From: Bacteroidaceae bacterium
GTDB taxonomy: Bacteria; Bacteroidota; Bacteroidia; Bacteroidales; Bacteroidaceae
Length of the DNA: 64,000 nucleotides
Assembly: GCA_017965425.1 (NCBI GenBank)
Contig: JAGCPY010000039.1
Coordinates: 11,389-75,388 of the forward strand
Direction of reading: 5' to 3'
Numbering within the stretch: position 1 is the stretch's first letter; every line of letters begins with the position of its first letter. The notes under the pieces are model-generated. The model was not told the origin of the DNA. It was given only the letters and a program-made list of their open reading frames with translations, and did no database searches. The position numbers were made by a program, and so were the translations under genes. Positions 18,987 to 33,004 of this stretch are shown here, in pieces.

Positions 18987-19139
18987 TTATTCTTCCTCTT
19001 CCCAGATGTCACCCCAGGCATTTTCTTTGCCGAGGACATCGGAATTGTCAGCTTTACCATCCATGAGGGAAATGGCAATCATGTTCTGAGCTGTTACGTT
19101 CTGCACTTCGAGGGCAGGAGTCATATAGTTCTTTTTCAT
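18987..19139 (-). CDS. Mini-ORF P3 (50 aa), paralog of P1/P2
   Basis: MKKNYMTPALEVQNVTAQNMIAISLMDGKADNSDVLGKENAWGDIWEEEE. The start is set at the internal MKK by analogy with P2. It lies 55 nt downstream of protein A. Confidence 0.6.
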   Translation of the reverse strand: MKKNYMTPALEVQNVTAQNMIAISLMDGKADNSDVLGKENAWGDIWEEEE

Positions 19140-19194
19140 AGTCGTATTCGATGATGAATAGTGAATTATAAAGTTCTTATTCTCAGATTGTGCA

Positions 19195-30600: not shown

Positions 30601-33004
30601 AGCCAAGGGCTGCATGAGCACCCCAGTCAGCACCGCCGCAGAAGAAACGGCCTGTGCCTACATTATATAAATAGAAGTCGCCGGCGGCAGGCACGTTGCC
30701 CGTGAACACGTCAGCCTGCGTCTCGGCATTAGCGATGCGGCGGTTCAGACGCAGTGCTGACAGGGCGTTGTTGACTTGTGCGGCGGTCGTGCCGTTGGCC
30801 AGGACGTTGTTGGCCTCGGTGACATCAACTCCGTCTGCCTGAGCAAAAGGAATGGTAGCTGCCAGGAAGGTCACATCGGCAGCCTCAGCATTAGCACGTG
30901 CGGTATTCAGGGCATTCGTCTTGGCTGTCAGCTCGTCTGTGTCAAGGGACTCGCGGACGGCGATGGCTTCATTGAGCGCCGTGTTGAGGGCGTTTTGCAG
31001 AGCGGTCGTGGTCTGTCCGCTGTAGGCCTGGGCAGCAGTGATGGCAGCTTCGAGAGCGTCGGTGAACTGGCTCAGATCGGGCAGACCAAGGTAGTAGAGG
31101 CGGAAGTTGTCGAAGCAGTTCCAGTCTTCACCATTCTTGTTGTCCAGTTTCATGCCGATCGTCAGATTACCATCTGTGACAATAGTCTGAATGGGTTCGT
31201 TCTCGTAATATCCTTCGCGGAAAGCAATGGAAGCTTTACCTTTTCCATTGGGATAACGATAGGTCGTTCCATTGATATCTACGCTAATGTCAGCGTATGC
31301 GGCAGGCAGGGTTGCAGAAAGTTGAGGCAACAAGTAGGCTTCCGTGTTATTGATGTAGTACTTCGTACGCTGTATGTCATTGCTACCCGCTCTCATTTGT
31401 GCAATAAGATAATCGCTATTGTTACTTTGGCTGATACGATAGTAACCTTGTACGCGGAGTTCATAGACGCCGTTTTTCATGCCAGTGAACGATTGATGGA
31501 TATTGAAGTTGGCGTTCCACACTTCAGCGCAGTTGTTCGAGCCGTCTGCATCGTGGCACCATCCGTTACCCGGACGCCAGTTGGTATTGTCGGTGTTCTT
31601 CCAGGAGTTCTGTTCGCCATCATAGCGGTCGAAGCCTTGGTTTTCGATGAGGTAAGTGACATCCACAGGATTGGAGGAAGAGGCCACGGACAGGTCTTCG
31701 CGAACGTTCCTGGGGATGAACTGCCACTGAGCACTCTTGTTCGAAGGCAGCGAGCCAGCCTCCAGACGGGTCTGGCCGTCCTTAGCCTGCAGGTATTTGT
31801 CTCCGTTCTTCAGGGTGTATATCTTCTTGGCGTTGTCAATACATTCAAAAGTCCAGGCCGTGGGAGCGTTGTCCACATAGACCGTCTCGCCATTGCCGTC
31901 GGCGATGAAGATACCCTTGCCGTCGCCATTGACATTTGTGACCAGCGTGAGTGTGCCGTCGCCGGCATTGTTCACGGCGATCACCATGCCGGCCTTGTCG
32001 AAACCGCCACGGGTGGCATAGTTATTACTGCGGGTAATGTACATCTCCCGCTCCACATTGTACACGTAGTACTGACCCGTCACGGGTTCGCTGGGAGCCG
32101 AAACCGAGATGTTGCTGTTCTGAGCGATAATCTTGTTGCAGAGGGTTGCACCATTATAGTTGCTGGAACCTGCATAATCCATCAGGATGATACCCGTGGG
32201 ACCAGGATTGGCATCAATGGTATTGAGGGCAAGCGTGTTGCAAGTGTTGGCATTACCTGTAATGTCATCGCTCAAACCAGGAATCAACCCGGGCACATAA
32301 CCAGAGGTGTGATTGATGAACATACGATTGGAGCTCGTGTTCTTGCGCGCCTCTGCGAGGAGATCGGTGATAGCAGTTGACTTAGCACTTGTGTCTTCTA
32401 CCTTGTAGTAGTCCTGAACCACGAAATCAATGCCATTGGCAGACTTGACATCGCGAGAGGTGTTGTCACCCCAATAACTAATGGTATATCCAGAGGCAAA
32501 CTCATCGCGGCTGAGGATAATGACCTTTCCACGGACATCACCCAGACGGAGGTTCGTTCTGAAAGGAATCACATAGTCGGAGAATGAGTTGATAACGGCA
32601 GCTACCTTGCTTGCCCAACTGTCACCACCATCTTCTTTGCGCATGAGGACGATGGCGAACTCACTTCCGTAGGTGCTCAACCGGCCGGTAATGGTTGTGA
32701 GGGCTGCGCGTAAAGTAGTGTTCGTTGCCAAAGTGCCATGATTGATGGTACAGTCATCACCGCTGTCTGTAGGGCGAAGGTCAAAGACTCGGACACCTGC
32801 ATCCCATAAACCTGCGATGTCCTTGTCCTGGCATTTGCCTATCGAAAGGCTCTTTGTTGCCGCATCGTGCGCTCCAGGCAGCGACATCTGCGAAATATAG
32901 ATGTTGTCGTTGAGGCCTGTCATCCATTGTTTTAGATCGACATCAGCCACGGCATTTCCTATGCTAAATAGGAAGCCGAGTAGTAAGAAAAAGATCTTTT
33001 TCAT
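27626..33004 (-). CDS. Giant T9SS cargo protein C: PI-specific phospholipase C domain, three lectin/beta-sandwich cassettes, a pre-CTD domain and a CTD
   Basis: Signal peptide MKKIFFLLLGFLFSIGNAVA. Residues 22-296 align motif by motif with Bacillus-type PI-PLC (SLPGAHDA, RVFDLR, TINHG, LRLGDVRGKVIILSR, SYWGDN, VVQDYYKV, FINHTSG, IILMDYAG). Three cassettes end DNFRLYYLG, DNFRLIFKG and DNFRLTYLG. The CTD is ...VYNMAGQRVAAPNKGVYVVNGKKMLVK. Confidence 0.9.
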   Translation of the reverse strand: MKKIFFLLLGFLFSIGNAVADVDLKQWMTGLNDNIYISQMSLPGAHDAATKSLSIGKCQDKDIAGLWDAGVRVFDLRPTDSGDDCTINHGTLATNTTLRAALTTITGRLSTYGSEFAIVLMRKEDGGDSWASKVAAVINSFSDYVIPFRTNLRLGDVRGKVIILSRDEFASGYTISYWGDNTSRDVKSANGIDFVVQDYYKVEDTSAKSTAITDLLAEARKNTSSNRMFINHTSGYVPGLIPGLSDDITGNANTCNTLALNTIDANPGPTGIILMDYAGSSNYNGATLCNKIIAQNSNISVSAPSEPVTGQYYVYNVEREMYITRSNNYATRGGFDKAGMVIAVNNAGDGTLTLVTNVNGDGKGIFIADGNGETVYVDNAPTAWTFECIDNAKKIYTLKNGDKYLQAKDGQTRLEAGSLPSNKSAQWQFIPRNVREDLSVASSSNPVDVTYLIENQGFDRYDGEQNSWKNTDNTNWRPGNGWCHDADGSNNCAEVWNANFNIHQSFTGMKNGVYELRVQGYYRISQSNNSDYLIAQMRAGSNDIQRTKYYINNTEAYLLPQLSATLPAAYADISVDINGTTYRYPNGKGKASIAFREGYYENEPIQTIVTDGNLTIGMKLDNKNGEDWNCFDNFRLYYLGLPDLSQFTDALEAAITAAQAYSGQTTTALQNALNTALNEAIAVRESLDTDELTAKTNALNTARANAEAADVTFLAATIPFAQADGVDVTEANNVLANGTTAAQVNNALSALRLNRRIANAETQADVFTGNVPAAGDFYLYNVGTGRFFCGGADWGAHAALGFPGILVTLEAAGEGVYKLNTHLRNGDDNGNYKEYLNYSGYCDTWTSDAWKFVSQGDGKYNIVRSANDANLLGYEGGTYNNVITSCVTATGPTNQWKLVTKADRDALLATATADAPQDASYLIKSPNFSQREDVSAWTFTNASIWGRGDNHPDFAIESYNSTSATVEQTVTGLPAGTYELKVQAFYRDGNFANQANILAGGGDARQLATLYAGTKSALIQNVSGGADQAPGMGRTSAVGYMPDGIDDACLYFQSGLYWATLDEIVVGQDGTMTIGARKTEKLNDGDWMVLDNFRLIFKGVSIDLSGVKADLLAKINEATTLLNDLGLNLSFLATVKNNGQNVYDNSQDADEIVDATNALQTAINQVTNTNTSNDLTAFKQTMTKATPEGIDVNGYKAAVEAETDGSAFAATVANQLFLLRSERKINALRMPDIYTGSAPAVGKVYLFNLGTGMFLGAGSDWNTHAAVDQVGIEVELVANGNGYIMKTPWGSFNPSPYVDTNAQTVYMFEAVAGKTNVYNILEGYDLLGWNPNGKTDGKKYWNNISNVTGASADDPNYQWKIITAAERETLLRQAAEQNPVDVSYLINNPSLIRLPGDEMWIKVRDGGNAARVSSIGEDDGNRRPDYAWEFYEPNSFSFSQQLSGLRPGKYEVSVQAFYRHGNGETQATAVNNGETLGQLAYLFANDQQTLLPNIASVRDLVPGIGDLRATNAGEFPNMPQSAIEYFEVGAYKTTVQVEVGTDGQLNIGVKKDSRSLAGDWVVLDNFRLTYLGMPAITIAETDDAAPSELNVPVTVTLTRTLIGGQWNGFSLPFSLSADQIAASDLNGAEIKQFNSVNANIITLEDATEIVAGDPYLIKPAASVVNPEFDGVVVVVIDEAEHVKGTGDYTFAPHLYNTSLATDGSVAYVSTTNSSIKKLTSGSIKGLRSIFQVPTANGVKPLVVRFGGDADAILSVDAEGNITEGAVYNMAGQRVAAPNKGVYVVNGKKMLVK

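Follow-up and report, generated by a model that had tools for sequence, protein, structure and literature searches.

Three large genes and their mini-ORFs

We analysed a 64,000-nucleotide stretch of contig JAGCPY010000039.1 (assembly GCA_017965425.1) from a Bacteroidaceae bacterium. This whole stretch is referred to as the window, and all positions are positions within it. On the minus strand of the window lie three large genes, C, B and A, each of which encodes a protein with a signal peptide (the cargo) and is followed by a small open reading frame (ORF). We examined these small ORFs, termed mini-ORFs P1, P2 and P3, and their relationship to the cargo C-terminus. In order, the C-terminal module of the cargo consists of a pre-tail domain of ~145 aa, a short disordered linker (..DDATGI..), ~12 variable residues and a 27-aa tail.

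27626-33004, minus strand: gene C, 1792 aa; signal peptide, PI-PLC-X (Pfam), repeated lectin-like modules, divergent pre-tail domain and a short basic tail ending VYNMAGQRVAAPNKGVYVVNGKKMLVK
27626-28225, minus strand: C-terminal module of C; divergent 'C-type' pre-tail domain (WNGFSLPF...), linker and tail, placed from alignments
27263-27454, minus strand: mini-ORF P1, 63 aa; 'YNIWDDDW' subtype, C-terminus NSYNIWDDDWSR, NCBI accession MBP5770752.1; 171 nt past the stop codon of C
22771-26691, minus strand: gene B, 1306 aa; signal peptide, Big_2, F5/8 type C domains, pre-tail domain and tail
22771-23301, minus strand: C-terminal module of B, 176 aa; all-beta pre-tail domain, disordered linker and 27-aa basic tail
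22605-22769, minus strand: mini-ORF P2, 54 aa; C-terminus NPWNDIWGEAEE, ATG 1 nt past the stop codon of B
19195-22260, minus strand: gene A, 1021 aa; signal peptide, two lectin-like modules, pre-tail domain and tail
19195-19734, minus strand: C-terminal module of A; pre-tail domain with tail
18987-19139, minus strand: mini-ORF P3, 50 aa; C-terminus NAWGDIWEEEE, 55 nt past the stop codon of A
57240-60170, plus strand: gene D, which serves as an internal negative control; shares the passenger modules and has a related tail, but neither pre-tail domain nor mini-ORF

Retranslation confirmed the coordinates and translations of P1, P2 and P3 given in an initial annotation of this DNA, and the gaps that it listed (171, 1 and 55 nt) were found on the window sequence. 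The three peptides share the head MKKxYxxPAL(Q/E) and a Trp/acidic tail, and contain no Cys, all as that annotation had described. NCBI annotates the three as hypothetical proteins of a Bacteroidaceae metagenome-assembled genome (MAG), from a Prevotella-like bacterium of the rumen. A hidden Markov model (HMM) built independently from 62 peptides, all of them from other genomes, was run on the six-frame translation of the window. It matched P2 (E = 3.5e-19), P3 (E = 5.1e-18) and P1 (E = 6.1e-6), and showed no match beyond these three in the six frames. Because a model from other genomes picked exactly P1-P3 in 64 kb, the resemblance among them is not due to chance.

Mini-ORFs are conserved genes that track the pre-tail domain

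A profile of the three peptides retrieved ~20 unnamed metagenome proteins of 50-65 aa. HMMER was then run exhaustively over 1.84 billion cluster representatives (50% identity). The family matched 1,766 of these at E <= 1e-3 and 82 at 1e-10, and nearly all matches were 45-80 aa long. The layout was constant across the family: a 25-aa head, MKKTY(I/L)xPxhxVxxxxxxxMhAxSh, a variable middle and a Trp-rich acidic C-terminus, the last occurring in variants such as WDIWxEE, YNVWDDDW(S) and WGNLW. An example stretch of a mini-ORF-encoded peptide is ALTKEDNAWDIWGEE. Median values for the peptides were 52 aa in length, -6 in net charge and 4.2 in pI, with a charge of -4 in the last 15 aa; Cys was present in 8 of 61 family peptides. 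Peptide searches of Pfam, NCBIfam, PADLOC and PDB sequences gave zero matches. A full-text literature search found no description of the mini-protein family or of any short Prevotella tail class.

Selection on the mini-ORFs, a check named in the initial annotation, was assessed from the ratio of nonsynonymous to synonymous substitution rates (dN/dS; Nei-Gojobori method, 640 pairs, dS 0.15-1.5). Median dN/dS was 0.36, and values of 0.07-0.25 were seen for the closest pairs. Gene-calling programs, like NCBI, also treat the mini-ORFs as coding sequences. These results show that the mini-ORFs are real, conserved genes under purifying selection.

The longest apolar run within the first 30 aa of the peptide had a median of only 7 residues, and we therefore recognised no Sec, lipoprotein or Tat signal. 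A reading of MKKTYLIPAL..AQA as a signal peptide was rejected on two grounds, an apolar run of insufficient length and an AxA motif that is not conserved. We likewise rejected an origin of the peptide by splitting off from the module or from a C-terminal domain (CTD; hhalign probability 0.4%).

A genome scan with one genome per species yielded 63 loci, often several in the same genome. Rumen/gut Bacteroidaceae/Prevotellaceae MAGs (goat, sheep, yak, deer, buffalo, reindeer) contributed 62 of these, and the lone locus without a MAG label came from Prevotellaceae bacterium MN60 (L060), which is titled as an isolate. At ~59 of the 63 loci the mini-ORF started at -4 to +132 nt from the stop codon of a 400-1640-aa ORF bearing the tail. 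Among the exceptions, L026 is interrupted by an assembly gap, L038 has a variant tail, L049 is the downstream member of a mini-ORF tandem and L051 is truncated. A further 80 metagenome loci were fetched via the tail and the module, not via the peptide. Across the 63 genome and 80 metagenome loci, the mini-ORF lay just 3' of a large signal-peptide protein, and in the genome loci the pre-tail HMM matched essentially all mini-ORF partners. Scoring of this linkage had been proposed in the initial annotation; the homologs sat behind large secreted proteins with a pre-tail domain and were not scattered. The passengers of these partners differed: C has PI-PLC-X, B has Big_2 plus discoidin, and other partners have LamG or CBM26.

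Two arrangements among these loci involved tandem copies. L049 carried tandem mini-ORFs (216-392 and upstream), and L149 (2423-10118) carried two tandem pairs of cargo and mini-ORF, resembling the A/B/C array of the window. Additional look-ups gave pairs of the same kind, some of them in tandem.

The pre-tail domain has the consensus YATFVAP...VPAGTPVVLKA...NDLxG...YVLA..VGFY.A...IAAGKAYL...VKAF.F and a net charge of -8, compared with +6 for the cargo tail. An AlphaFold2 (AF2) model of the last 176 aa of B was all-beta, with a predicted local distance difference test score (pLDDT) of 88 overall and ~95 for residues 1-130. Linker residues 134-143 were disordered in the model, and the ~27-aa tail formed short hairpins (pLDDT 74-84). 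Foldseek of the B module model against PDB gave no match at E <= 1e-3, and family searches with the pre-tail domain gave no catalytic or toxin family match. The pre-tail region is a new domain, modelled with confidence and without a solved relative.

The initial annotation held that A, B and C carry the same domain ahead of the tail. This was clear for B (151 bits with the pre-tail HMM) and A (134 bits), but C carries a divergent, alignable subtype, tied to the main type through intermediates such as L144. A C-type HMM joined the C module to partners in L042, L052, L135 and L144. The mini-proteins of L042, L135 and L144 are of the (Y)N(V/I)W-D/E-W type, and that of L052 differs, ending FYGSAIWE. 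C-type domains thus paired mostly with P1-like peptides (YNVWDDDW and close variants), L052 excepted, and A-type domains paired with P3-like peptides ('MMAVS..ADP..VLTKE'). Passengers vary and peptide subtypes match domain subtypes; what is conserved as a cassette is therefore the module together with the mini-ORF.

Specificity was assessed in tail-bearing ORFs that had not been picked via the peptide, namely bystanders in the fetched loci and the 80 metagenome loci, with counts made after inspection of divergent cases. A mini-ORF lay downstream in 61 of 71 tail-bearing ORFs with a pre-tail domain and in 0 of 14 without one (Fisher p = 5e-10). This gives a rule for annotation: in ~86% of cases a mini-ORF follows the pre-tail domain. 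Gene D is counted among the 14 domain-less ORFs. The initial annotation had described D as lacking the pre-tail domain and the mini-ORF and as being followed by a terminator; all three points held for D itself, and its use as a negative control extends to the other domain-less proteins. Divergence of the peptide correlated with that of the pre-tail domain (r = 0.66) and the tail (r = 0.64), and weakly with that of the 140 aa upstream (r = 0.26). These results show that the mini-ORF tracks the pre-tail domain, and neither the passenger nor the tail alone.

The sequences between and behind the genes were also examined:

27455-27625, minus strand: C-P1 spacer, 171 nt; two CCCTCCC/GGGAGGG hairpins within a 16-nt long-range stem
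22544-22569, minus strand: terminator-like hairpin plus T-run, 35 nt past the P2 stop codon
18925-18960, minus strand: GC-rich hairpin, 26 nt past the P3 stop codon
~60229-60264: terminator after D, hairpin plus T-run

The hairpin at 18925-18960 is probably the end of the A-P3 transcript. Most mini-ORFs in the related loci were followed by a strong GC hairpin 20-60 nt downstream, and we therefore take the unit to be cargo, mini-ORF and terminator, in that order. The mini-ORFs thus belong to the cargo transcription unit, in which they follow the cargo gene and precede the predicted terminator, and they are often translationally coupled.

The C-P1 spacer had a predicted minimum free energy of -70.5 kcal/mol (z = -4.2). 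Hairpins resembling those of this spacer preceded the mini-ORFs in four other loci (L020, L022, L027 and L037), and probably explain N-terminally extended gene calls of the 'HLPxGGxEG-MKK..' type. The structured spacer may be an attenuator or a processing site that sets the ratio of cargo to peptide. A second spacer motif, GACCTTAAGGTCTCTAAGGACTTTAGGGAC..., was seen between cargo and mini-ORF in unrelated MAGs (L013, L019, L021 and L034). Between the P1 stop codon and the start of B, an imperfect palindrome (27001-27219) has arms of 84 nt that are 81% complementary, an inner 42-nt pair that is 93% complementary, and tandem 11-nt units GGTGAGGGAAT and ATTCCCTCACC. Rfam gave only sub-threshold matches to generic hairpins (miRNA precursors) for this palindrome.

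The short tail and the type IX secretion system

The initial annotation assigned a type IX secretion system (T9SS) CTD to A, B and C. The cargo tail has a consensus of ~27 aa, IYNLAGQRxxKxQKGINIVNGKKVLxK. Its sequence, IYNLAGQRV..KGIYIVNGKKVLVK, resembles the last strands of the type A CTD (PF18962/TIGR04183), including the terminal Lys motif. Motifs D and E, as defined in PMC10202324, comprise a G-x-Y/N-I-V strand and terminal K-x-x-x-K lysines. By inspection, the motif D/E-type pattern ..KG(I/V)(N/Y)I(V/I)NGKK(V/I)L(V)K was present in A, B, C and ~130 partners. Unlike the type A CTD, the tail is ~27 aa rather than 70-80 aa, lacks the N-terminal strands, and is preceded by a different domain of ~145 aa and a disordered linker. 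In the AF2 model, B did not show a 70-80-aa seven-strand Ig-like beta-sandwich at its extreme C-terminus.

The curated CTD profiles were applied at cut-offs of 23 bits (TIGR04183) and 27 bits (PF18962). Full-length A, B, C and D gave no TIGR04183 or PF18962 match at E <= 0.01. When the C-termini were searched in isolation, B alone matched part of TIGR04183 (model positions 12-38 of 72; 12.6 bits); A, C and D gave no TIGR04183 match and none of the four matched PF18962. The same libraries found the canonical CTD of a GH43 protein in the window (55756-57105; PF18962, 29.3 bits). As this GH43 protein bears a canonical CTD, use of the T9SS by this genome is very likely. The assignment made in the initial annotation therefore stood for the last type A motifs (D and E), but not for the curated profiles, which remained below threshold. 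Since the tail resembles the last type A strands yet misses the curated thresholds, we describe it as a T9SS-like short tail; it is not a PF18962 member.

A short tail of this kind has a precedent, as the last 22 aa of HBP35, comprising motifs D and E, suffice to secrete green fluorescent protein (PMC10202324). A PDB sequence profile search returned only three chains, 8bbl_A, 7jvi_A and 4kca_A, all of which end in the same short tail (..YNLQGQRV...GIIITNGKK..). These are a beta-N-acetylhexosaminidase, a beta-helix protein and an endo-arabinanase, and are uninformative on function. As three solved chains carry it, the tail class reaches well beyond the proteins linked to mini-ORFs. Many likely T9SS substrates in these organisms bear such a truncated tail, which goes undetected by the current CTD profiles.

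Possible roles of the mini-protein and surroundings of the locus

In the rumen and in many human guts, Prevotella-type bacteria are dominant. They display many giant surface or secreted proteins, for which the rules of export are extrapolated from Porphyromonas and Flavobacterium. The small-protein family encoded by the mini-ORFs is large (1,766 clusters or more at 50% identity), wholly unannotated and genetically tied to one C-terminal module, which suggests an unrecognised cargo-handling component such as an escort, an adaptor or a cap. The initial annotation proposed a dedicated partnership between the peptide and this class of cargo; synteny at more than 140 independent loci, the reciprocal test, purifying selection and co-divergence strongly support this. 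The small-protein family and the pre-tail domain are new; an adjacent accessory gene for secreted cargo is an arrangement already known. The mini-protein is probably a dedicated helper for the export or anchoring of its cargo, and Prevotellaceae bacterium MN60, as a titled isolate rather than a MAG, is a carrier in which this can be tested. Sequence tools do not separate the chaperone, inhibitor and exported-peptide options from one another, and we disfavour the immunity-like and exported readings.

The reading of these sequences that we favour, though tentatively, is that the peptide is a cytoplasmic, module-specific escort or holdase acting on the newly made C-terminal module. The peptide would be made beside the just-completed cargo C-terminus, at up to 1:1 where the ORFs are translationally coupled. 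Disordered alone, it would fold onto the pre-tail domain, and its acidic Trp tail could lie on the +6 basic cargo tail. In the cytoplasm it would keep the last-made, fast-folding module export-competent, or mask the sorting tail, and it would be stripped off upon Sec export. The AF2 model of the lone peptide (pLDDT 58, with a weak helix at residues 6-27 only) predicts disorder, which fits folding upon a partner.

Class I chaperones of the type III secretion system (T3SS), Lap proteins of type VII secretion LXG toxins and SecB are small, acidic and cytoplasmic, are encoded beside their substrates and bind a conserved targeting region. The mini-protein is similarly small and acidic, has no signal-peptide-like h-region and is encoded directly after the cargo gene. 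It differs in having no sequence or structure similarity to these chaperones and in its size (50 aa compared with 100-150 aa). The bound region would also be C-terminal, in a cargo that uses Sec first. We know of no such dedicated factor in Bacteroidota.

Several points weigh against an escort that acts in the cytoplasm. To our knowledge, no dedicated cytoplasmic chaperone for T9SS cargo has been described. The cytoplasmic site of action is inferred solely from the absence of a recognisable signal peptide, and use of the T9SS by these cargo proteins is assumed. In ~14% of domain-bearing cargo there is no detectable mini-ORF (L015 at 6338-8357, L069, L071, L078, L087, L098, L104, L117, L124 and L129), and the mini-ORF is therefore not strictly needed in cis; the L015 cargo has only a terminator in the mini-ORF position. 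The co-divergence of peptide and module could reflect co-inheritance of a duplicated cassette. The word 'chaperone' is also absent from the 2023 effector review (PMC10202324).

A broader proposal is that the pre-tail domain, the short tail and the mini-protein together form a new cargo-sorting class of the Bacteroidota T9SS, a bipartite signal that would need a ~50-aa cytoplasmic or envelope co-factor. We regard this as doubtful. If true, the mini-protein would be the first cargo-specific chaperone or adaptor for T9SS substrates, widespread in rumen and gut Prevotella.

The peptide could instead reach the periplasm or surface by an unrecognised route, bind the pre-tail domain there and aid T9SS recognition or attachment in the manner of PorP/SprF. 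Such an envelope adaptor or anchor seems unlikely, although the closest known arrangement is of this kind. Cargo with type B CTDs have adjacent cognate PorP/SprF genes, SprB-SprF being an example, and thus offer a precedent for partner genes of a cargo class adjoining T9SS cargo; as in our loci, the C-terminal region defines the cargo class, the partner gene clusters with each cargo and there are several pairs per genome (PMC10202324). The peptide also tracks a module that lies beside the sorting tail, and extra recognition help is plausible for a tail without the N-terminal half of the canonical CTD. However, PorP/SprF proteins have signal peptides and form beta-barrels in the outer membrane that are several hundred residues long, whereas the partner here is an acidic protein of ~50 aa, too small for a beta-barrel, without a Sec, lipoprotein or Tat signal (apolar run median 7). 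The peptide profile has no similarity to the module, no conserved transporter lay nearby in the 63 loci, and cargo C-termini gave no match to TIGR04131 or PF13585 even at E <= 10.

A small acidic protein encoded directly after a large secreted one, with stop and start codons often abutting or overlapping, recalls toxin-immunity pairs such as colicin-immunity, contact-dependent inhibition (CDI) and barnase-barstar. If the pre-tail domain were harmful or unwanted in the producer, an acidic peptide specific for this single domain might neutralise it until export. We consider such a cap quite unlikely. The mini-ORF follows a conserved, non-toxin module while passengers vary, the opposite of a polymorphic toxin domain; the pre-tail domain is itself acidic (net -8) and has no catalytic or toxin family match, and no toxin or immunity family match was found in PADLOC, Pfam or NCBIfam. 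Moreover, the several pairs per genome lack diversification of the immunity-gene type.

It is very unlikely that the peptide is an exported bioactive or signalling molecule, such as a ribosomally synthesised and post-translationally modified peptide (RiPP), a bacteriocin or a pheromone, that is merely co-expressed with surface proteins. Its conserved 'leader-like' N-terminal 25 aa, variable middle and Trp-rich C-terminus are compatible with this, as is a gene that faces P3 in the window:

18082-18861, plus strand: radical SAM gene, convergent on P3

However, a radical SAM gene lay downstream of the mini-ORF in 0 of the 63 other loci, and this one is therefore probably unrelated to P3; the RiPP idea drawn from it was rejected because the neighbour is unconserved. 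The commonest neighbour family was seen in 8 of 63 loci, and no maturase, peptidase/protease, ABC exporter or transporter recurred. The peptides have no conserved GG or Cys motif, and export as a bioactive peptide would leave the strict tie to one protein domain unexplained.

That the mini-ORF acts mainly through its translation, as a trailer ORF affecting stability, termination or processing at the cargo mRNA 3'-end, is highly improbable. In favour of this view, the mini-ORF is always placed after the cargo stop codon and before the terminator, and some copies follow structured spacers. Against it, conservation is at the amino-acid level (dN/dS well below 1, both termini kept across 1,766 clusters) and spacer length ranges from -4 to 171 nt.

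Among the passengers, a module of ~330 aa is repeated, with two copies each in A and D and three in C. It opens with FYLYNVxTGxWL and a QxW-like motif ('NQWKFV / WQLVT'), which suggests that its start is a ricin-type beta-trefoil, and continues with a '...GxYxLxVQAFYRxG...DWxVxDNFRLTYxG' domain. No Pfam family matched this module in A, C or D.

The cargo genes adjoin an alpha-mannan-type polysaccharide utilisation locus (33062-57105). This locus comprises GH76, a CBM9 protein, GH92, a DUF4973/BT_3044-like protein, SusD, SusC, an IPT/TIG protein, a GtaA-like hydrolase, a hybrid two-component regulator and GH43.

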